DNA of 64,000 nt, taken from Alphaproteobacteria bacterium. Lineage in GTDB: Bacteria; Pseudomonadota; Alphaproteobacteria; GCA-2731375. Where the stretch lies: assembly GCA_965232515.1 (NCBI GenBank), contig CBDDPY010000002.1, positions 5,226,193-5,290,192 on the forward strand, written 5' to 3'. Under the pieces are notes generated by a model. It saw nothing but the letters and a program-made list of their open reading frames with translations. It searched no databases and was not told the DNA's origin. The position numbers and the translations under genes were made by a program. Of the stretch, positions 52,295 through 64,000 are shown piece after piece (the first letter of the stretch is position 1; each line of letters starts with the position of its first letter).

Positions 52295-52672
52295 TTGTCC
52301 CTTGTCCTCTGCTGCTGACAAACAACAAGGCAAATGCCGGCGATGCCGGCGCAACCGATATCGGACGTTGCCGCTGGGCTGGTACATGCTCAAGCCGTGC
52401 CCCAGGGGCAGGACGGTCATCATAAACCCTTCGTGGTCCCAAAAGCGATTTGCGGCAATTTTAGGCACGCGATCGACCGCAATCGCGTTCAGCCGCGCAT
52501 CATGACCGGCACCGCCGGATATGATGCGCCGCAAAAACGAGATGCGGTAATGTCATGTTAACGACATACTTGATTTAGTATTTTGTCGCGCGTCGCCGCC
52601 GCGCTATCTTCTTGTCTATCAGCGTCACCGGCGGTGCGACGGTGTGAGGACAGTCAAGAAGGGCCGAGATCG

Positions 52673-53218
52673 ATGTCTCAGGATGCCAGCCCGGCATTGG
52701 TACTGAACGCCGATTATCGGCCGCTCAGCTACTATCCGCTGTCCGTCTGGCCGTGGCAGGAGGTGGTGAAGGCGGTGTTCCTGAACCGCGTCAACGTGGT
52801 CTCGGAATACGAGCGCAAGGTGCGTTCGCCCGGCTTCGAGATGGCGCTGCCCAGCGTCGTCTCGCTGAAGCGCTACGTGACGCCGGCGAAGTATCCGGCC
52901 TTCACCCGGTTCAACCTGTTCCTGCGCGACCGGTTCAGCTGTCAGTATTGCGGCGACAAGAACGACCTGACCTTCGATCACGTGACGCCGCGGCGCTGCG
53001 GCGGCCGCACCACGTGGGAGAACGTCGTCACGGCCTGCGCCTCGTGCAACCTGTTGAAGGGCGGGCGGCTGCCGCACGAATGCAAGATGCACCCGGCGCA
53101 CAAGCCGCACCGGCCGACCGTGCACGAGCTGCACCAGGCCGGCCGGGCGTTCCCGCCGAACTACCTGCACGAAAGCTGGAGCGATTTCCTCTACTGGGAT
53201 ACCGAGCTGGAGCCGTAA
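52673..53218 (+). CDS. HNH endonuclease
   Basis: Internal ATG of ORF 52583..53218. CQYCG...DHVTPRRCGGRTTWENVVTACASCN (CxxC...H-N...CxxC HNH core). Confidence 0.8.
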   Translation: MSQDASPALVLNADYRPLSYYPLSVWPWQEVVKAVFLNRVNVVSEYERKVRSPGFEMALPSVVSLKRYVTPAKYPAFTRFNLFLRDRFSCQYCGDKNDLTFDHVTPRRCGGRTTWENVVTACASCNLLKGGRLPHECKMHPAHKPHRPTVHELHQAGRAFPPNYLHESWSDFLYWDTELEP

Positions 53219-53802: not shown

Positions 53803-54363
53803 TCAGATCCGTTCCGACAGCCAGATGGCGAGCCGCGTGCCGGCCTTGATGCCGCGGCTCAGCACCGGGTAGGCGGGCGCCTGCTCGGCGTCGTGTTCGA
53901 GTGCCGTTTTCCGGTGCTCTTCTTCTTCCGCGCCGAAGGACTCAATGGTTTTTTTCAGCGCCGGCTCGTCGTCGCCGAGTGCGTCCGCCTGTTTCTTGTA
54001 GTGCTCGACGATCACCTCTTCGACCGCCTCCGTGCAGGCCATGGCGGCCTTCTCGCCGATCAGCGCCGTGCCCGCGCCCAGCATGAACCCGGCCGCGCGC
54101 CACAGCGGTGTCAGCGCCGTCGGCCGCACCCGCCGCTCCACCAGCAGGCGGTTGAACTCGGCCAGGTGCACGTCCTCGGCCGCGGCCATTTCGGCCACCA
54201 CCGGCTCGGATTTCGTGCCGGCCAGGACGGCCAGCTGTCCTTTGTAGATCTGCACCGCGCCGAACTCGCCGGCCTGGTCGACGCGGATGATGCGTTCGAT
54301 CAGCGCCCGGTCCGACGGGTCGCCGGGCAGGCGTTTGCGGGGCGCGCGCTTTTTCGCCGTCAT
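53803..54363 (-). CDS. coq7: demethoxyubiquinone hydroxylase (Coq7 family)
   Basis: Internal ATG of ORF 53803..55014. RVDQAGEFGAVQIY, diiron motifs EDVHL and EEEHR. Confidence 0.85.
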   Translation of the reverse strand: MTAKKRAPRKRLPGDPSDRALIERIIRVDQAGEFGAVQIYKGQLAVLAGTKSEPVVAEMAAAEDVHLAEFNRLLVERRVRPTALTPLWRAAGFMLGAGTALIGEKAAMACTEAVEEVIVEHYKKQADALGDDEPALKKTIESFGAEEEEHRKTALEHDAEQAPAYPVLSRGIKAGTRLAIWLSERI

Positions 54364-55621: not shown

Positions 55622-55662
55622 GCCCCCGTGGCGGAATTGGTAGGCGGGCGTGACTCAAAATC
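55622..55662 (+). pseudogene. 5' half of a tRNA-Leu(CAA) gene, truncated just after the anticodon loop (island junction)
   Basis: GCCCCCG-TG-GCGGAATTGGTAG...CGTGA-CTCAAAA-TC shares GTGGCGGAATTGGTAG and the CTCAAAA loop with the intact gene at 57006. No variable arm, T arm or 3' acceptor strand follows; the sequence turns AT-rich. Confidence 0.75.
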
Positions 55663-55780: not shown

Positions 55781-56959
55781 ATGGCCGATGCGAACATCAG
55801 CCTGATGGGCGGCAAGCTCCACGTCTACAAGCGGGAGAACAGCCGCTACTGGCAGTGCTCCACCTACCTGGCCGGCAGGAACCGGCGGGTCAGCACGAAG
55901 GAAGAAAGCCTGGCCAACGCGAAGCTCTTCGCGGAGGACTGGTATCTTGAACTACGCGGCAAATACCGCCGCGGCGAGGTCAAGAACGAGAAGACCTTCC
56001 GCGAGGCGGCGAAGGTGTTTGAGCGCGAGTTCGAGATCATCACCGAGGGCGAGCGCAGCCCCCGCTATGTGCAGGGCCACAAGGAGCGCCTGCGGGTGCA
56101 TCTAAACCCGTTCTTCGGCAACAAAGGCCTTTCGGAGATCACGCCCGGTCTGGTCCAGGAATACCGGCTACATCGCCGCGAGACGTCGCGCACAGGCAAG
56201 CCGCCGGCGCGCAGCACGATTCATCAGGAAATCGTGTGCCTGCGACAGGTGCTTAAGACAGCCATCCGTCATGGCTGGTTGCAGCATCTGCCGGACCTGT
56301 CGATGCCTTACAAGACATCGGGAAAACTGGAGCATCGAGCGTGGTTCTCACCAGATGAATACCGCAAGCTTTACGAGGCGACGCGCCGCCGTGCCCAACA
56401 GGCAAAGGGCCGCCGCTGGCAATGGAATTGCGAACAGCTGCATGATTTTGTGCTGTTCATGGCCAACACGGGCCTGCGGCCGGACGAAGCCCGTCGTCTT
56501 CAATACCGCGATGTGGAGATTGTCGAGGATGACGCCACCGGCGAAACCATCCTTGAAATCGAGGTCCGGGGTAAGCGCGGCTTTGGCTACTGCAAGAGCA
56601 TGGCCAATGCGGTGCGTCCGTTTGAGCGCCTGGTCAGGCGCAACGACCCGGAGCCGTCAGACCTGATCTTTCCGGGCAACCACCGGGAGCTGCTGAACAC
56701 CATCCTCGAGGAAGAGGGCCTGAAGTTTGACCGGGATGGCCGGCGACGCACGGCGTATAGCCTGCGCCACACCTACATCTGCTTTCGCCTCATGGAAGGG
56801 GCGGATATTTACCAGATCGCCAAAAACTGCCGTACCAGCGTCGAGATGATCGAGAAGTTTTATGCCTCTCACATCAAGACCAGCCTCGACGCCGCTGCGA
56901 TCAACGTCCGCCGCCAGCGGCCGAACCGCAACAGCCGACAACCGGCCAGTCCTGCCTAA
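55781..56959 (+). CDS. tyrosine-type site-specific integrase
   Basis: 392 aa after GGGAGG. C-terminal catalytic pattern RPDEARRL...LRHTYICF...IEKFYASH (R...HxxR...Y). Confidence 0.9.
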   Translation: MADANISLMGGKLHVYKRENSRYWQCSTYLAGRNRRVSTKEESLANAKLFAEDWYLELRGKYRRGEVKNEKTFREAAKVFEREFEIITEGERSPRYVQGHKERLRVHLNPFFGNKGLSEITPGLVQEYRLHRRETSRTGKPPARSTIHQEIVCLRQVLKTAIRHGWLQHLPDLSMPYKTSGKLEHRAWFSPDEYRKLYEATRRRAQQAKGRRWQWNCEQLHDFVLFMANTGLRPDEARRLQYRDVEIVEDDATGETILEIEVRGKRGFGYCKSMANAVRPFERLVRRNDPEPSDLIFPGNHRELLNTILEEEGLKFDRDGRRRTAYSLRHTYICFRLMEGADIYQIAKNCRTSVEMIEKFYASHIKTSLDAAAINVRRQRPNRNSRQPASPA

Positions 56960-57005: not shown

Positions 57006-57092
57006 GCGGGCGTGGCGGAATTGGTAGACGCGACGGCCTCAAAAGCCGTTCTTCGAAAGAAGGTGTCGGTTCGACTCCGACCGCCCGCACCA
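57006..57092 (+). tRNA. tRNA-Leu(CAA), intact, class II with long variable arm
   Basis: Acceptor GCGGGCG/CGCCCGC, anticodon stem ACGGC/GCCGT with loop CTCAAAA, T arm GTCGG-TTCGACT-CCGAC, encoded CCA. Possible promoter TTGGCC-17-TATGTA at 56968-56996. Confidence 0.9.
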
Positions 57093-57193: not shown

Positions 57194-58327
57194 ATGGCAC
57201 ACGATTCCTCCCAAGTAGTTCTTCCGGATTTGGACTACGAAATGTGGGAGACAATTCGGGCGGAAATTGCAGCCGAGTACGCGGAACCTCACAACAAGCC
57301 CTGGATTTTGGGCTTCTCAGGCGGCAAGGACAGCACCGTCGTCGCCCACCTGGTTATCGAGCATTTGTTGTCGCTGCCGCGCAGCGAAAGAATCCGTGAG
57401 GTTCATATCGTTGCCAACGATACGCTCGTGGAGAGCCCGTTGGTCATCTCGCATATCTGCAAGGTCCAGGACGATATCCGCAAGGCCGTCGATGCGTTTC
57501 AGCTGCCTGTCGTTGTCGAGACAACGTCACCGGACCCTGAGCATACCTTTTGGGTAAACCTCATCGGACGCGGATATCCATCGCCGAATCGGTCCTTCCG
57601 CTGGTGCACGGATCGGATGAAGATTCAGCCGACCAGCACTTACGTCAAAAAGCGCGCCCATGAATCCGGTGAAGTGATCTTGCTCCTGGGTGTAAGGCGC
57701 GACGAAAGCGCAACGCGCGCCGGGAGTGTCGCCCGCTATGACAACGGTGAGCGCCTGAACCGCCATAATGACCTTCTGGGCTGCTGGGTTTTTCGTCCGA
57801 TCGTTGACGTGACAACGGATGAGGTTTGGGAGTTGCTGGCGACGGAGGTTCCGCCGTGGGGTGGGTCGCACGACGACCTTATAAAGCTGTACCGCAATGC
57901 CGGTGGTGGTGAGTGCCCGGTCGTGACCAGCCAGAGGGATGCGCCGTCATGCGGCACGACGTCGTCCCGGTTCGGTTGCTGGACATGTACGGTGGTCGAA
58001 AAGGACCGAAGCTTGCAGGGCTTCGTTGATGCGGGTTTTGGAGAGTTTACACCCCTGCTCGACTTTAGGGACTGGCTCGTATCGATCCGCAATGACCCGG
58101 AGAGACGGTTGGCGCGTCGCCGCGATGGACGCGTTACGATTGCATCAAATGGTATTCACATACCTGGCCCCTTTACACTCGCTACCCGAGCAGAAATACT
58201 GGAGAGACTACTGAAGCTACAGCAGGAAGTCGGGCGAGAGCTTATTTCAGAAGCGGAGATAGAACGTATCCGAAGCCTTTGGGCGGAGGATGCTCTCAGC
58301 GCTGCGGCACGGTCCGCAGCACAATAA
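57194..58327 (+). CDS. DndC/SspD-like PAPS-reductase-fold ATP pyrophosphatase (DNA sulfur-modification type)
   Basis: 377 aa with PP-loop GFSGGKDS (aa 40-47), SFRWCTDRMKIQP and Cys cluster GGECPVV...SCG...SRFGCWTCTVV. Confidence 0.8.
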   Translation: MAHDSSQVVLPDLDYEMWETIRAEIAAEYAEPHNKPWILGFSGGKDSTVVAHLVIEHLLSLPRSERIREVHIVANDTLVESPLVISHICKVQDDIRKAVDAFQLPVVVETTSPDPEHTFWVNLIGRGYPSPNRSFRWCTDRMKIQPTSTYVKKRAHESGEVILLLGVRRDESATRAGSVARYDNGERLNRHNDLLGCWVFRPIVDVTTDEVWELLATEVPPWGGSHDDLIKLYRNAGGGECPVVTSQRDAPSCGTTSSRFGCWTCTVVEKDRSLQGFVDAGFGEFTPLLDFRDWLVSIRNDPERRLARRRDGRVTIASNGIHIPGPFTLATRAEILERLLKLQQEVGRELISEAEIERIRSLWAEDALSAAARSAAQ

Positions 58328-58357
58328 ATACTAGCTCCGCTGTATCGGGGGTCTTCG

Positions 58358-58564
58358 ATGCCGAAAAACGTTGTCGTGTTGCTGCAAAGCGACGAAGGGC
58401 GCTCTTTGGTTCGTAAGAAGTGCCGCGCAGCAAGTGTGCGCATGAGTACGGTCGAAGAATTGATAGAGGCTGAGCTGGATCAGCAGGGCAAGATGCGGAA
58501 GGCCGGTCTTTGGGAAGAATTTGACCGGGTATTCGACGAAGCCGCTCCGGAGGATGCAGAGTAA
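58358..58564 (+). CDS. small hypothetical protein (68 aa) inside the dnd-like operon
   Basis: Its stop overlaps the ATG of the next gene (TAATG at 58562-58566). It has a basic N-terminal half and an acidic C-terminal tail. No family recognised. Confidence 0.5.
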   Translation: MPKNVVVLLQSDEGRSLVRKKCRAASVRMSTVEELIEAELDQQGKMRKAGLWEEFDRVFDEAAPEDAE

Positions 58565-60630
58565 TGCATTTGCGTGCCGTGGATCTCCGGGACTGGCGCT
58601 CTTACCGACACGCTCGATTTGAGTTTCCCACACCAAACGACGGCCGCAACGTCATTCTGGTTCGAGCACCCAATGAATACGGCAAGACGTCGTTCTTCGA
58701 GGCGATCGCTCTCGGTCTGTTCGGTCGAGAGGGGTTGTTCCTGGTGCCGCGCGCACGTGTCGCGACCAATGGTGATCTTTCCGAACGACAGGCCGTCACC
58801 TACAGCCAGTTCCTGGCCGGTACGCTCCACAGGCGTGCGCTTGCCCAGGGGCGGCAGAGCTGTTCCGTCACGCTTGAGTTAGAAGACGAAGACGGTGAAC
58901 CCGTCGAATTAACGCGCAAATGGCACTTCGCGTCGAATGGCCAGCACAAGCCTTACGACGATGAACTTCTGATTTTTGAAGGCCACGGCCGTCGCCCGGT
59001 GGCGCCGCCTGCTACGGTGACTGATCGCGACGGCTGGTACCGGGAATACATTGCCAACACCTTTATCCCTGCGCCGCTGGCTGAGTTCTTTCTCTTCGAC
59101 GGAGAGCAGGTTCAGCGATACGCCAACCGGGGCATGTCGGGGCAAATTCGCATCGGCATTGAAGGCCTGCTTGGTCTTCCTGTTCTCCGAAGCCTGAAGG
59201 ATTCGCTCCTGCGATATGCGCAGGCACGCCGGTCCAGTGCCGCGTCGCCCTCCGATGAAAAGGTCCGGGCAGTGGAGCTTGATATCGATCGCCTGAAACA
59301 GGATATCGCAAGCAAGGAGAAGGTGCTCGAAGACGTGGATTCGCTCCTTCCGGGATTGCAGTCGGAAAGCGATGAACTTGCGCAGCGTCTCGGCGGCGGC
59401 GGTGAAGGCACAATGGCCATGGTCGCCGACCTTATCCGCGAGGAAGAACGCTTTAGGTCGGAGGCGGGCAGGCAAACTGAAGCTCTTATGAAGCTGCTTG
59501 CCGAGGATGTTTCGCTGGCGCTGGCTGGTTCCGCGCTCCGTGAACAAACGGTCAAGCGCTTGCAAGCGGAAGAGTTGCGCGAAAGCTGGGAGTCCGGCCG
59601 TAACCAGGGGAATGTCAATCTGGACCGCTACATCGCAGACCTGTCTGGTCGCGTTGCGAGTCTGGAACCGCCCATTGAAGGACAGCAGCGTGATGATGTT
59701 CTCGATGCGGCCCGCACGGCCTGGGAAGCGCTTTGGCACCCACCGCCGGAGGGATGTGCCGACGACTATCTCCACAAGGGACTGACTGGATCGGCGCGAT
59801 CACAGGCAATTGAGCGGCTGACCGCAATCGGTGAGCGCTCGGGCAGCGAACTGGCAAAGCTGATTGCCCAGCGACGATCATTCGTGGAAATGGCGGAAGC
59901 GAAGAAACGCGAATGGTTGTCTGTCGAACAGAATGCCCCTGAGGCGGAGCGCCTGAGTGAACGCCTGAAGGAGGTCAGCGAAGAGATCGGTGAACTCAAG
60001 ACCCGGCGCGACACGGCGAAGCGGGAGATTGAGTCTCTGCAAGGCGAGCTGGCTGCGCGCCTGCAGGAGTTTGGCCGCTATACCGACAGCATCGGACGCG
60101 GGGCGCCGGCGCTTCGTCGGGCTTCTCAAGCCGAAGCGGCCGCCAAGCTCATTGACGATATTCTCAGGGATGCAGTGCCGACGCAGGTGAATGCTGTGGC
60201 CGATGCGATGACGAAAGCGTGGAAGTCGATGGCGCACATGGACTTCCGTGTCGATCGCATCGAGATCACTGCGGACTGTGAAGTGAAGATGCTCAATAAG
60301 AAGGATGAAAACCTGCACGACGTCGAAAAGTCTGCCGGTGCCAGCCAGATTTTTACCCAGGCACTGATTTGGGCGATCAACCATGTGAGCGGTCAGGAGT
60401 TCCCGTTCATTGTTGATACGCCTTTGGCCCGGCTAAGCCGGGATCATCGTCTCGGCGTATTGAAAACCTTCCCTGATCGAAACGGCCAGGTGATCCTGCT
60501 TTCGACTGACGAAGAGGTGGTAGACGACAAGCTTGAGGCGATTGAGAAGCGGATCGCGGCTGCCTATCAGCTGCGTGTGCGTGACGATGATGGCGTGGCG
60601 GTGACCACTATCGAAGAAGACAAGCTGTAG
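58564..60630 (+). CDS. DndD/SspC-like SMC/ABC-type ATPase
   Basis: 688 aa, Walker A APNEYGKTS, long coiled-coil middle, signature KSAGASQ, Walker B/D-loop FPFIVDTPLARLSRDHR, LLSTDEEV. Confidence 0.8.
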   Translation: MHLRAVDLRDWRSYRHARFEFPTPNDGRNVILVRAPNEYGKTSFFEAIALGLFGREGLFLVPRARVATNGDLSERQAVTYSQFLAGTLHRRALAQGRQSCSVTLELEDEDGEPVELTRKWHFASNGQHKPYDDELLIFEGHGRRPVAPPATVTDRDGWYREYIANTFIPAPLAEFFLFDGEQVQRYANRGMSGQIRIGIEGLLGLPVLRSLKDSLLRYAQARRSSAASPSDEKVRAVELDIDRLKQDIASKEKVLEDVDSLLPGLQSESDELAQRLGGGGEGTMAMVADLIREEERFRSEAGRQTEALMKLLAEDVSLALAGSALREQTVKRLQAEELRESWESGRNQGNVNLDRYIADLSGRVASLEPPIEGQQRDDVLDAARTAWEALWHPPPEGCADDYLHKGLTGSARSQAIERLTAIGERSGSELAKLIAQRRSFVEMAEAKKREWLSVEQNAPEAERLSERLKEVSEEIGELKTRRDTAKREIESLQGELAARLQEFGRYTDSIGRGAPALRRASQAEAAAKLIDDILRDAVPTQVNAVADAMTKAWKSMAHMDFRVDRIEITADCEVKMLNKKDENLHDVEKSAGASQIFTQALIWAINHVSGQEFPFIVDTPLARLSRDHRLGVLKTFPDRNGQVILLSTDEEVVDDKLEAIEKRIAAAYQLRVRDDDGVAVTTIEEDKL

Positions 60631-60642
60631 AGACCGTCCGCC

Positions 60643-62175
60643 ATGCCTCTGAGCATCATGGATGTCGTGAATTCGCAGTACCGTACGACAAAGGCGGCGG
60701 ACGATCAGTGCGACCAGCTTCTTCGGCGATTGGGTTACAGGGTGCGGTACCTGCCGGCGCGCTTGGCAATTGCGCGGTCGCTGTCTCTACTTGAACAACC
60801 GGAGCCGCTTGGCTCGGGCGAAGAGGAAGAGATGGCCGTTGGTATCCGCGGTCAGCAGCTCTTCGGAGACGGTAGCGACCCTGCGGCCTGGATGGCGCTG
60901 ATTTCCCAGCGATCAGGCACCAGCGACCTCGAACGCCGTGAGTTTCAGAATATTGTCGGCGCACACTGGCAACGCGGCGCGGACTTGTTGGCGAGGGATT
61001 GGGAGGAATCGGCTGAGAGCCTTGGCACATTCGTGTCGCGTCTGGCTGAGCTTGCCAATCTCGCCATAGATGATGGTGGCAAGTCCTTCGGTGGAGAGTT
61101 TGTTGAGTCCCCGGCACCGCTTGCGACAAACGTGACGCTGCCAGTCGGGCCTGTTGCCGAGGACGCCGAAACGGGCGAGCCGGTGGAGTTTCCGCTGAAC
61201 GCTCCCGGCGGCAGTCCGCACATGGCAATCATGGGTGGCACCAACTCCGGCAAGACATATACGGCGGTGACGATGCTGAAGCGGCTTAGGTCCATCGGGC
61301 CGGTGCCGATTCTTGCGTTTGACTTCAAGGGTGACCTGTCCGAGCGGCTTGCGCCTGACATAGGTGCGGACGTGGTGTCGCCGCCCAGATCGCCGGTACC
61401 GTTGGACGTCCTTGCGGTGCAGCTGCAGGACGAAGTTGGACTGCGTGAGGCGGCGGGGCGCATTCGCGAGTCGATCGGTCGCGTAAAGAGTTCAAGAATC
61501 AGCGGCGTTCAGTCTGATGCCCTGCGCGAGGCGGTGTTTCAGACGCTGCGAACACGGAGGGATGATACACCGTCAACGCTGAGCAACGTGTCGCGCGCAC
61601 TGGAAGCCGAGTACCAGCGGCGAAACCGCCGCCCTGACGAATTGACGGCGACCCTCAACGAGCTGAATCAGTTTTCCCTCTTCGATCCTCAAATGAGGCC
61701 GGAGGAGTTTTTTAGCCGGAGCTGGATTATCCGGCTGCCGCAGGATAGTACGGCTGAAGTGCGCCGCCTGATCATCAACCTGACGCTCGATGCGCTTGAT
61801 CGGTGGCTAAACTCGCAAGAGGACGCCCCTGAGGTGGACGGCCGACGTGCATTGCGCCACGTGTGTATGCTCGATGAAGCGCATGTGATTCTGGCGACGA
61901 AGCTGCCGGCCCTGACAAACCTGATCCGAATGAGCCGGTCCAAGGGCGGGGTCATTATGCTCGTCTCGCAATCGCCGGACGATTTTGAAGGCGAGGAAGA
62001 AGGCTTTTTAGACAACATGGGGCTGGTGCTAGCTTTCAATACGCAGGCGAAAGCCGGACCGACGCGTCGGATTTTCGGTGCCGGTGCCTCTCTCCCTGAC
62101 CTGACAGTCGGTGAAGCCCTGTGCCGAATTAGGTCGGAAGCCCGGACGCGCAGGATAACAGCGTGGCGGGCGTGA
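60643..62175 (+). CDS. fusion protein: DndE-like N-terminal domain plus FtsK/HerA-type P-loop ATPase
   Basis: 510 aa. The N-terminal roughly 130 aa (YRTTKAADDQCDQLLRRLG...LPARLAIARSLSL...GIRGQQLFG...AHWQRGADLL) follows my recollection of the DndE pattern. The C-terminal part has Walker A GGTNSGKT, AFDFKGDL, Walker B CMLDEAH and LVSQSPDDF. Confidence 0.55.
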   Translation: MPLSIMDVVNSQYRTTKAADDQCDQLLRRLGYRVRYLPARLAIARSLSLLEQPEPLGSGEEEEMAVGIRGQQLFGDGSDPAAWMALISQRSGTSDLERREFQNIVGAHWQRGADLLARDWEESAESLGTFVSRLAELANLAIDDGGKSFGGEFVESPAPLATNVTLPVGPVAEDAETGEPVEFPLNAPGGSPHMAIMGGTNSGKTYTAVTMLKRLRSIGPVPILAFDFKGDLSERLAPDIGADVVSPPRSPVPLDVLAVQLQDEVGLREAAGRIRESIGRVKSSRISGVQSDALREAVFQTLRTRRDDTPSTLSNVSRALEAEYQRRNRRPDELTATLNELNQFSLFDPQMRPEEFFSRSWIIRLPQDSTAEVRRLIINLTLDALDRWLNSQEDAPEVDGRRALRHVCMLDEAHVILATKLPALTNLIRMSRSKGGVIMLVSQSPDDFEGEEEGFLDNMGLVLAFNTQAKAGPTRRIFGAGASLPDLTVGEALCRIRSEARTRRITAWRA

Positions 62176-62183
62176 CGGTGAAG

Positions 62184-63242
62184 TCAGGTTCCGCCGTAGG
62201 CTAATTGGAAGGCGTGCCAGGTTACTTCTGGACGCCCAAGAAGGTCGGGCTTCTGGCCCAGATCCTTCACAATCAGACCGTTCACTTCGGCAAGGTACCG
62301 TATTTCGTCGGCTGTGACGCTGTAGATGCCGCGTTCAAGCTGCGCCGGTCCATGCCGCAGGCTCACGTAAATCTTTCCAGCAGGCTTCAGAAGAGATGAA
62401 AGTACGGTCAGGGCCTTCGGTCGGTCCTCGGGATGCAGGTGCATCCAGACAGCACTGACGAGAATATAGTCATATTTTTGCTCGAAATTCAGGACTTTGT
62501 TCAGCTCAGGGAGTGCATCCTTTATCCATCGGATGCCTGATTTCGGATGCTGATTGCGCGCGAGAGCGAGCATCTTCTCGGAAGGCTCCACGGCAACGAC
62601 ATCTGCGCCGTGTAAAGCCATCCATGCTGCATCTCTCCCGGAGCCGGTGCCTACATCGAGCACATTCGGTTTCTTGTCTGCTGATTTGGTTATCTCGGCT
62701 GCGAGGTCGGGGTGAATATCCTCGAACTGGACGGACTCGTAGTTGTCAGCGAGGTCACGCGCGTAGGTGTCGTAATAGGCCAAAGATCGCAGGCTACGGT
62801 CTGTATCGGATGGTTTGGCCTCATTATTCACTAATAACGCTCCAAAGAGACCAAGGCTGATGGCAGCCGCTGCGCCGAGCAGGCATTGAAATACAGTTCT
62901 GACCAGCCTGGACCGGGTAAAGAAACCCGTCCCTTCGCCTGACACGTACCCTGCTGCGTTGTAGGCCTCGATCCAGTCGAGATACTTCTGCATGAGGTAC
63001 CGAAGGCGGGTCAGCACAAGTATCAAGCCGATATTGCCCACCGCCGCGAGGAAGAGCAGTGCAAGCTTGAACAGAGCGAAATCGCCAACCTTGGTGACGC
63101 CGAACCATAGGCCGCCGGTGAGGGTCATGGCAATCAGCGGGATTTGCCACATCAACTGGTTCAAAGACCTGAAGGTGATGCAATTCTGTTCGTATGCGAC
63201 CTGCATCCGCTCGAATTCCATATCTTCAGGCGATTTGGTCAT
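62184..63242 (-). CDS. membrane-anchored class I SAM-dependent methyltransferase
   Basis: The N-terminal roughly 140 aa carries three hydrophobic helices. The C-terminal part has motif I VLDVGTGSGRD and ILVSAVWMHL. ATG at 63242 (or GTG at 63245). Convergent with the ATPase gene, with 8 bp between the stops. Confidence 0.75.
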   Translation of the reverse strand: MTKSPEDMEFERMQVAYEQNCITFRSLNQLMWQIPLIAMTLTGGLWFGVTKVGDFALFKLALLFLAAVGNIGLILVLTRLRYLMQKYLDWIEAYNAAGYVSGEGTGFFTRSRLVRTVFQCLLGAAAAISLGLFGALLVNNEAKPSDTDRSLRSLAYYDTYARDLADNYESVQFEDIHPDLAAEITKSADKKPNVLDVGTGSGRDAAWMALHGADVVAVEPSEKMLALARNQHPKSGIRWIKDALPELNKVLNFEQKYDYILVSAVWMHLHPEDRPKALTVLSSLLKPAGKIYVSLRHGPAQLERGIYSVTADEIRYLAEVNGLIVKDLGQKPDLLGRPEVTWHAFQLAYGGT

Positions 63243-63400
63243 CACTCCACCGGATCAAAGATGTGCAGGAATGGCTGAATGTGGCGGCAGCATTGGGACT
63301 GACCATCAGGCTCCGATCGGCACCGGATCGGCTAGCTGTGTCATATCTGTGTCATGGATTTTACTCGGGCGTGGAAACTTCTCATAACCCTTTGAAATAA

Positions 63401-63445
63401 TGGCGACGATGAGAAGATTCGAACTTCCGACCTACGCATTACGAA
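63401..63445 (-). pseudogene. 3' half of a tRNA-Thr(CGT)-like gene (anticodon loop to CCA), att-type remnant
   Basis: The reverse complement reads TTCGTAA-TGCGT-AGGTC-GGAAG-TTCGAAT-CTTCT-CATCGTC-G-CCA. No matching 5' acceptor or D arm lies to the right. Confidence 0.65.
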
Positions 63446-63645
63446 CGTTGTCCGGCTGATTTTCAATAATTAAATAAATCAACAAGTTAAAAGTTCCTGA
63501 CGCACTGCTCTAATAAGCAATATTGTATACTTTGAAGCATTTTTGGATTTTACTGTATCATAACTGTGTCACGGGTTATATTCAGAATGCCGCACGAACA
63601 AAAACATATAAGACGATGAATACAAAATAAACGAAGATTTGACGC

Positions 63646-64000
63646 ATGGCAAATATTAGAAAGCACGTTGGGAAGAACGGAGAGGTTAGTTACAAGGTTC
63701 AGATTCGCATGGCCGGTACCAAGCCGAGATATGCGAGTTTCAGGAGGCTGTCGGACGCAAAAGAATGGGCGCGGGAGGAAGAGACGAAGCTCCAGCGTCG
63801 TCGTGGCGGGTTGCAGCCGCAGGACCGCCATACGCTTGCCGAAGCCATCGATAAGTTCATTGCAGAGGAGATGGCGCGGCGGCCGGAGCGCGACCAGTAC
63901 TGGTTCAAGTGCGGCCTTGCATGGTGGCGCAGGGAGCTTGGCCCGATGCAGTTGCGCTCGATTACACCGGCTGACCTCGAGCGCGGGCGGGATATGTTGG
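63646..64000 (+). CDS. tyrosine integrase, N-terminal part (runs off window)
   Basis: Absent from the ORF track because it is open-ended. My translation MANIRKHVGKNGEVSYKVQIRMAGTKPRYASFRRLSDAKEWAREEE...ITPADLERGRDML has the typical arm-binding/SAM-like integrase N-terminus, preceded by AT-rich DNA. Confidence 0.65.
   Translation, partial: MANIRKHVGKNGEVSYKVQIRMAGTKPRYASFRRLSDAKEWAREEETKLQRRRGGLQPQDRHTLAEAIDKFIAEEMARRPERDQYWFKCGLAWWRRELGPMQLRSITPADLERGRDML

Follow-up and report, generated by a model that had tools for sequence, protein, structure and literature searches.

A probable DndEi-type DNA phosphorothioation modification module with a predicted split DndC on a tRNA-Leu island of an alphaproteobacterium

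Introduction

A DndE protein fused to a HerA/FtsK ATPase and encoded next to a DndD-related ATPase has been described among the DNA phosphorothioation (PT) systems as clade-3 (Rakesh, Aravind & Krishnan, Nucleic Acids Research 2024; PMC10853773). DndEi, in which DndE is joined to a helicase/ATPase domain that is essential for phosphorothioation, was reported by Zheng et al. (Journal of Biological Chemistry 2016) and occurs in Riemerella and other Flavobacteriales (reviewed in PMC6435447). Extended DndE of the DndEi type is also known from Bacteroidales. The DndEi subgroup is characterized by helicase activity and by an ATPase activity that the target motif stimulates. A Nucleic Acids Research paper of 2020 (Krishnan) is reportedly a further source for the DndE-HerA/FtsK fusion. 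In the present work, a stretch of 64,000 nucleotides from an alphaproteobacterial assembly (contig CBDDPY010000002.1, positions 5,226,193 to 5,290,192; "the window" in the following) is analyzed, which carries a cassette of four genes whose products, judged by profile and structure comparisons, are DndC, Sp-DndD, a DndD-related ATPase, and a DndE::HerA/FtsK fusion.

The locus is probably a DndEi-type Dnd module for PT modification only, which lies on a tRNA-Leu island, has no dedicated restriction partner in the window and relies on a cysteine desulfurase of the housekeeping kind. One of the readings offered by the initial annotation of this DNA was a minimal module for modification only that uses housekeeping IscS/SufS, and it is the one taken here as the best explanation.

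The Four-Gene Cassette

The cassette consists of four co-directional open reading frames (ORFs) at 57194-62175 (table 1). Along it there is a gap of 30 nt, an overlap of 1 nt (gagTAATGcat) where the stop of orf68 overlaps the start of dndD, and a gap of 12 nt. All four ORFs are of full length in comparison with their homologues, and the catalytic motifs are all intact. The GC content of the cassette is 0.57-0.60 versus 0.64-0.70 in most of the window. Much of the initial annotation is upheld at this level: the four ORFs and their spacings by the ORF list and the sequence, the location on lower-GC DNA beside an integrase and a tRNA by the GC profile, ARAGORN/Rfam and Pfam, and both the gene identities (DndC, DndD-like, and DndE fused to a translocase-type ATPase) and the retained C-D-E gene order by hidden Markov model (HMM) searches.

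Gene 1 scores 360 bits against TIGR03183 DndC (cutoff 290), covering profile positions 4-364 of 447, and 390 bits against the PADLOC DndC model, covering 12-374 of 481. The SspD and BrxP models of PADLOC give 51 and 48 bits, respectively. Over residues 26-365 of a RefSeq DndC of 493 aa, the protein shows 44% identity, and it contains the PP-loop SGGKDS, as well as cysteines in RWCTDRMK, GECPVV, PSCG, and RFGCWTC. Gene 1 is predicted from these matches to be DndC, that is, a PP-loop ATP pyrophosphatase/[4Fe-4S] sulfurtransferase, without the usual C-terminal tail.

Gene 3 aligns over its full length (23-673) with TIGR03185 DndD at 216.7 bits, which is under the cutoff of 245.85, and reaches 250 bits with the PADLOC model of DndD. 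The Pfam match is AAA_23, and the motifs are Walker A NEYGKTS, the signature SAGASQ, and Walker B FIVDTP. The best PADLOC model, at 712 bits and full length, is named "PbeC." PbeC forms a sister clade to DndD that is marked by the CxC hook (PMC10853773), and the defining set of PbeABCD comprises a CxC zinc hook ATPase, an HKD-nuclease/SF2-helicase PbeA, and a disordered small protein PbeB. A search for the CxC motif in the gene 3 sequence found none and the island has no PbeA-like gene; a PbeC identity for gene 3, and likewise a PbeABCD/CxC-ATPase system, was therefore rejected. Because the CxC motif is missing, gene 3 is placed with DndD and not with PbeC, and the literature term "DndD-related" fits it. 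The PADLOC label is a matter of naming, PbeC and DndD being sister clades. By sequence search, neither gene 1 nor gene 3 has a solved relative in the PDB.

In the same collection, a PADLOC model named "MTase_II" matches DndC at 242 bits (models PDLC02736 and PDLC03333 form the "PbeC"/"MTase_II" pair). The two names can mislead automatic calls.

Gene 4 is a fusion of the DndEi type, composed of a DndE part containing two ribbon-helix-helix units (residues ~1-137) and an ATPase of the HerA/FtsK superfamily (~160-510). In detail, Pfam DndE (PF08870) matches residues 14-120 with 30.1 bits (cutoff 25), and residues 184-470 match DUF87/HerA, TrwB, and HerA_C. The AlphaFold model (pLDDT 89, the predicted local distance difference test) shows the succession strand-helix-helix twice within residues 11-91, followed by long helices, a linker that is disordered (140-154), and a RecA-like domain. 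The Walker A (GGTNSGKT) and Walker B (LDEAH) motifs are invariant in 77 relatives. The best Foldseek match is the C-domain of DndH (7es4; E 8e-16, TM 0.79 relative to the target), and VirB4, HerA, and TrwB rank after it.

This structural closeness bears on the proposal, also found in the initial annotation, that the fused ATPase gives the sensing or effector function, in which case a new kind of PT-based defence would need no more than the four genes. The C-domain of DndH is the motor of the DndFGH restriction complex, and the ATPase of gene 4 further matches the PADLOC models of DndH and mad8. However, no nuclease or other effector domain was detected in gene 4, whose 510 residues are fully taken by DndE, the linker, and the ATPase according to Pfam, AlphaFold, and Foldseek. 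The extra domain of DndEi is reported as required for the modification itself (PMC6435447), and the fusion has been described as part of modification systems (PMC10853773). Moreover, relatives often have separate candidate partners downstream (a DGQHR protein, or an HNH protein by the FtsK-type cassette), which suggests that the four genes are not self-sufficient for restriction. Nothing in gene 4 indicates an effector, and such a defence system is very unlikely.

With a 508-aa "DndE family protein" of Aequorivita, which represents the flavobacterial fusion type, gene 4 shares 26% identity (E 5e-30). By this alignment, it is distantly but clearly homologous to the flavobacterial DndE fusions over most of its length. 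In Aequorivita and Myroides (loci L085 and L086), pairs of DndD and DndE-ATPase are found in loci without DndC. Encoded there instead are an N6 methyltransferase resembling type IIG, Sp-DndD, another ABC ATPase, and an HNH nuclease, and L085 continues with a gene that has a Piwi domain (Argonaute-like). There are at least two independent fusions of DndE with an ATPase, namely the HerA/DndH-like form of gene 4 versus a true FtsK-type form in Rhizobium (L167, 11275-12801; NF007615, 150 bits).

A Separately Encoded C-Terminal Segment of DndC

The 68-aa orf68 had been taken as an extra gene between C and D. It is better understood as Sp-DndD, the putative separately encoded equivalent of the C-terminal segment of DndC. 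Among 39 members of the orf68 family, 27 match the PADLOC DndC model at profile positions ~408-457 of 481, 13-14 match TIGR03183 at positions 393-446 of 447, and 10 match Pfam PF20306 (best E 4.5e-7), a family described as [quoted passage not shown] The orf68 of the window alone gives no match to the PF20306 profile. In profile-profile comparison (hhalign), the family corresponds with 94% probability to the flavobacterial Sp-DndD, with 92% probability to the "DNA modification system-associated small protein" of RefSeq in Rhizobium phaseoli, and with E 8.8e-5 to residues 404-448 of the full-length 493-aa DndC.

The latter is the same protein to which gene 1 was aligned (residues 26-365). Since both align to one full-length DndC, gene 1 and orf68 seem to represent a colinear and evolutionarily fixed split of DndC. 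In an AlphaFold3 model of DndC-DndD from E. coli, the interfaces with DndD are residues 433-482 and the C-terminal helix of DndC (PMC12193691). Because the modeled contacts are in the C-terminal part of DndC, Sp-DndD may be the piece that docks on DndD.

Gene 1 and orf68 are in one reading frame with a single TAA between them. This could be read as a DndC broken by a nonsense codon, in a decaying remnant whose cassette is no longer functional, and the absence from the window of the DGQHR genes seen in many relatives would agree with such decay. On the contrary, 72 of the loci fetched have a homologue of ~66 aa as a separate ORF, which occurs in each of the three possible frames with respect to dndC, begins at a start of its own (MPRN...), has conserved residues, and ends at the start of dndD. 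Both RefSeq and Pfam recognize the small protein as a family, and the full length of the four ORFs and their intact motifs are also against decay. A nonsense-mutated DndC was rejected on the conservation of the small ORF as a separate gene in other frames, and a decaying locus is highly improbable.

The combination of a short DndC with a separate Sp-DndD is found with both kinds of DndE-ATPase, that is, in the 80 loci of the HerA/DndH-like kind and in one RefSeq locus of the FtsK-like kind. In one locus with a canonical short-DndE cluster (L168), DndC is of full length (493 aa). The split DndC with DndE-ATPase versus the full-length form with short DndE suggests how the contact between DndC and DndD is organized.

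Distribution of the Cassette

Relatives of gene 4 are numerous. The protein database contains more than 120 of full length with at least 57% identity, some of which are named "DndE family protein" by NCBI, and a search of 50%-identity cluster representatives with gene 4 gave 90 clusters at E <1e-30. With one genome per species, 115 species have a relative of gene 4, mostly Alpha- and Gammaproteobacteria, and out of these 80 loci were fetched for comparison. The order short DndC, small ORF, DndD, and DndE-ATPase is found in ~72 of the 80 and is kept wherever the contig allows. Across the loci that share this order, the identity of gene 4 falls to 40%. The recurrence of the same order at such divergence indicates that the cassette is under selection as a unit.

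The claim that the architecture had not been described before fails because of the published fusions (PMC10853773 and DndEi), the wide recurrence in ~72 of the 80 loci, and the RefSeq annotation of Rhizobium phaseoli, which reads dndC, "DNA modification system-associated small protein," dndD, and DndE-FtsK fusion. A search of the supplement of Rakesh et al. (PMC10853773) for the genera found here gave no match, and the main text of that paper, in the portion consulted, makes no mention of a split DndC in the fusion systems. A locus that looks exotic from its letters alone proves to be a widespread and already described variant of Dnd.

Partners and Related Systems

The statements of absence in this section refer to the 64-kb window, which ends 1.8 kb after gene 4. 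A cysteine desulfurase was not found in the window by tblastn (best E 0.09), the query being an E. coli IscS sequence. PADLOC profiles of DndB, SspB, DndFGH, PbeA, and SspE have no match among the island genes, and HMM scans gave none for a DGQHR protein. The absence of DndA, DndB, and the catalogued restriction modules from the window, as first noted from the sequence, is confirmed by these tblastn and profile scans.

DndA is present in 32% and DndB in 51% of the taxa with modification genes, that is, both are frequent but not obligatory. DndA is absent from most Dnd loci, where IscS substitutes for it, and DndFGH is commonly uncoupled from the modification genes. A locus without DndA, DndB, and DndFGH is ordinary for Dnd. 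In 26 loci of cassette relatives, a pair of a small protein and a DGQHR (DndB-like) protein is located downstream. The pair has two variants, and one of them corresponds to TIGR04172, "DNA phosphorothioation-associated DGQHR protein 1." This pair is absent from the window.

Three further known systems were compared with the locus and rejected. For SspABCD, the 51 bits of gene 1 with SspD contrast with 390 bits with DndC, and neither SspB (DUF4007) nor SspC was found. In the case of the DndFGH module, only the C-terminal ATPase of DndH matches gene 4, with no DndF or DndG. MADS, an operon of mad1-mad8 with an N6 DNA methyltransferase, shows only generic partial domain matches (mad8 with the ATPase of gene 4, and mad2 with the Rossmann domain of the methyltransferase that neighbors the cassette), and the other mad genes are absent. 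That methyltransferase has no (D/N/S)PP(Y/F/W) motif.

Two relatives carry other genes directly after DndE-ATPase. In Siccirubricoccus (L001, 11648-12151), the next gene has a precomputed Pfam match to the ScoMcrA sulfur-binding domain (PF26340), which our own Pfam scan at E<=0.01 did not reproduce. In a metagenome-assembled genome of Poribacteria (L014, 5414-6580), the fusion gene is followed by another DndC-like gene, whose product of 388 aa shares 50% identity with gene 1, and by an ORF of 594 aa.

Proposed Function and Its Weighing

In the modification-only module favored here, sulfur would be loaded by a housekeeping cysteine desulfurase with its gene outside the locus (IscS, SufS, or NifS) on the DndC core, whose PP-loop and [4Fe-4S] centre would place it in the DNA backbone, as in established Dnd biochemistry. 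The DndD-related ATPase together with the two ribbon-helix-helix units of DndE would scan the DNA and select the target motif, following the model of DndD and DndE as a co-evolving pair (PMC10853773). By analogy with DndEi (PMC6435447), the HerA/FtsK ATPase may provide the ATP-driven unwinding or translocation needed for modification. Sp-DndD would probably dock on DndD in trans as the detached C-terminal piece of DndC, as the AlphaFold3 model suggests (PMC12193691). The role of the modification would be epigenetic, antioxidant, or protective, unless it acts together with partners encoded at other sites of the genome. A TusA-family sulfur carrier is encoded after the equivalent fusion gene in Rhizobium phaseoli, which fits such sulfur chemistry.

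Several observations weigh against this explanation. Gene 3 remains under the cutoff of TIGR03185, PADLOC gives no DndE match for gene 4, and the ATPase of gene 4 is structurally closest to the motor of a restriction protein, DndH. The homology of gene 4 to DndEi was assessed through the flavobacterial fusions (26% identity). In two genomes the flavobacterial fusion is in loci without DndC, and thus the fusion alone is no proof of PT. Finally, as only the window was seen, a restriction partner elsewhere in the genome is possible.

The Island and Its Borders

The tRNA-Leu(CAA) marks the left edge of the segment of low GC in which the cassette lies, and the integrase sits between this intact tRNA and a remnant of a tRNA-Leu 5' half, which neither ARAGORN nor Rfam calls as a tRNA (table 1). 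The 1.4-kb integrase segment has the appearance of an insertion of its own, by which the tRNA was rebuilt from the 5' side. At the other end, the tRNA-like 3' end and the second integrase suggest that another island abuts the dnd module. A direct repeat of the tRNA-Leu 3' end, which would mark the right boundary of the island, was not found in the window. The cassette and the methyltransferase form a module of ~6.3 kb within a mosaic tRNA-Leu integration hotspot.

To the left, ARAGORN also calls a tRNA-Val at 54068-54149 on the minus strand, inside a region that reads by eye as protein-coding (with a Coq7-like ORF ending at 53803). The call is probably false.

Table 1. Predicted features of the cassette and its surroundings (positions are those of the window)
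Feature	Coordinates	Strand	Size and remarks	Evidence
Gene 1, DndC core	57194-58327	+	377 aa	ORF list, HMMs
orf68, Sp-DndD small protein	58358-58564	+	68 aa	ORF list, family profiles
Gene 3, DndD-related ABC ATPase	58564-60630	+	688 aa	ORF list, HMMs
Gene 4, DndE::HerA/FtsK ATPase	60643-62175	+	510 aa	ORF list, Pfam, AlphaFold, Foldseek
Membrane-anchored class I SAM (S-adenosylmethionine) methyltransferase	62184-63245	-	convergent with gene 4	Pfam, AlphaFold
tRNA-Leu 5' half remnant	55622-55662	+	direct repeat of 57011-57044: 34 nt (55627-55660), 82% identity	
Tyrosine-recombinase-like integrase	55781-56959	+		Phage_int_SAM_5 25.3 bits (cutoff 22.3); Phage_integrase 20.2, below cutoff
tRNA-Leu(CAA)	57006-57092	+		ARAGORN; Rfam tRNA 60.8 bits
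tRNA-like 3' fragment	~63398-63460	-	AT-rich spacer; reads …GGTTCGAATC…CGCCA on the minus strand	
Second integrase-like ORF, N-terminus	63646-64000	+	runs off the window end	six-frame translation, by eye, no HMM

The Convergent Membrane Methyltransferase

The methyltransferase matches Methyltransf_25 (58 bits), TehB (42.9; cutoff 20.4), and TPMT (29.6; cutoff 26) of Pfam. Its model (pLDDT 92.7) consists of three long hydrophobic N-terminal helices and a Rossmann methyltransferase domain. An invariant membrane motif (FRSLNQxMWQIPLIxMTLTGGLWFGV) characterizes the family, and the SAM-binding motif is intact. The Foldseek matches are methyltransferases of small molecules or peptides and not of DNA, and neither AlphaFold nor Foldseek gives a hint of the substrate. 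In RefSeq the family is named only "class I SAM-dependent methyltransferase."

A homologue is found at the same place in 10 of the 80 DndE-ATPase loci. A metagenome scan seeded by the methyltransferase alone gave 80 loci (L087-L166), 52 of which are informative, with 4 kb or more of flanking DNA on one side. PT modification genes are present in 35 of these 52, being Dnd-type in 19 (with DndE-ATPase or short DndE) and Ssp-type in 14, where the order is SspB-SspC-SspD-SspA-methyltransferase. The link is also seen on two RefSeq plasmids (L167 and L168), and the methyltransferase often has a DGQHR protein and a small protein as companions. In the literature searched, the link with PT genes was not found described.

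These results raise the question of whether the cassette is one half of a larger PT-linked system, the other half being the methyltransferase, joined in many relatives by DGQHR and a small protein. The PT mark or the sulfur relay would then be sensed, regulated, or exploited by such a methyltransferase module, and the whole would be a defence or regulatory system instead of one for modification only. The invariant membrane motif and the intact SAM-binding motif are in favor of it, as is the association in 35 of 52 metagenomic loci with two unrelated DNA-targeting machineries, repeated in the 10 of 80 genome loci and on the RefSeq plasmids. The DGQHR partner is itself the PT-associated TIGR04172, and the methyltransferase remains 42-49% identical across loci in which gene 4 is ~44% identical, which suggests joint descent. 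However, 70 of the 80 DndE-ATPase loci have no methyltransferase, and with the DGQHR pair missing from the window any methyltransferase module would be incomplete here. The fold is of the small-molecule type with no clue to a substrate, and the link with PT genes could reflect shared island backbones. On balance, a larger system of this kind is unlikely.

The same caution applies to the view, doubtful at present, that the family is a dedicated and unnamed accessory of Dnd and Ssp PT systems, that is, the "missing partner" of such loci. If true, the methyltransferase could act on the PT sulfur or the persulfide relay, or as a PT-coupled membrane effector or regulator. The link is a lead and not a result, and it makes the family a concrete candidate for a function tied to PT that is so far unstudied. 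In higher-GC DNA 4 kb to the left of the island, a protein of 211 aa with an HNH motif is encoded (52583-53218, plus strand). It was considered as a counterpart of the HNH genes linked to the methyltransferase and rejected, as it shares only the generic HNH motif.

Comparison with Known Systems

The closest described systems are the DndE-HerA/FtsK fusions of clade-3 (PMC10853773). As in these, a single polypeptide joins DndE and HerA/FtsK, a DndD-related ATPase is encoded next to it, the fused ATPase is a relative of the one in DndH, and Sp-DndD (PF20306) is present. Nothing defining sets the locus apart from clade-3, of which it seems to be one more example, located on a tRNA-Leu island and lacking DndB.

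Like the DndEi systems of Riemerella anatipestifer, Flavobacterium indicum, and Kordia algicida, the locus has within its PT modification cluster a DndE that is lengthened by an ATPase/helicase domain. The identity to the flavobacterial branch is only ~26%, and the orthology to DndEi and the helicase activity of gene 4 are predicted by homology.

Plasmid pRphaN831b of Rhizobium phaseoli has the same succession of dndC (379 aa), small protein, dndD, and a 508-aa DndE::ATPase, with a methyltransferase of the same family adjacent. Its ATPase, in contrast, is of the true FtsK type (NF007615) and its fusion protein matches gene 4 in the DndE part only. Unlike the window, the plasmid further encodes TusA, DGQHR protein 1, and an HNH protein next to its cassette.

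Finally, the canonical DndBCDE systems with DndA/IscS (Salmonella enterica Cerro 87, E. coli B7A, and Streptomyces lividans) have the DndC chemistry, the DndD-DndE core, and the C-D-E order in common with the locus. They differ from it in a DndC of ~490-540 aa, a DndE of ~110-125 aa without ATPase, the presence of DndB and, often, of DndFGH.

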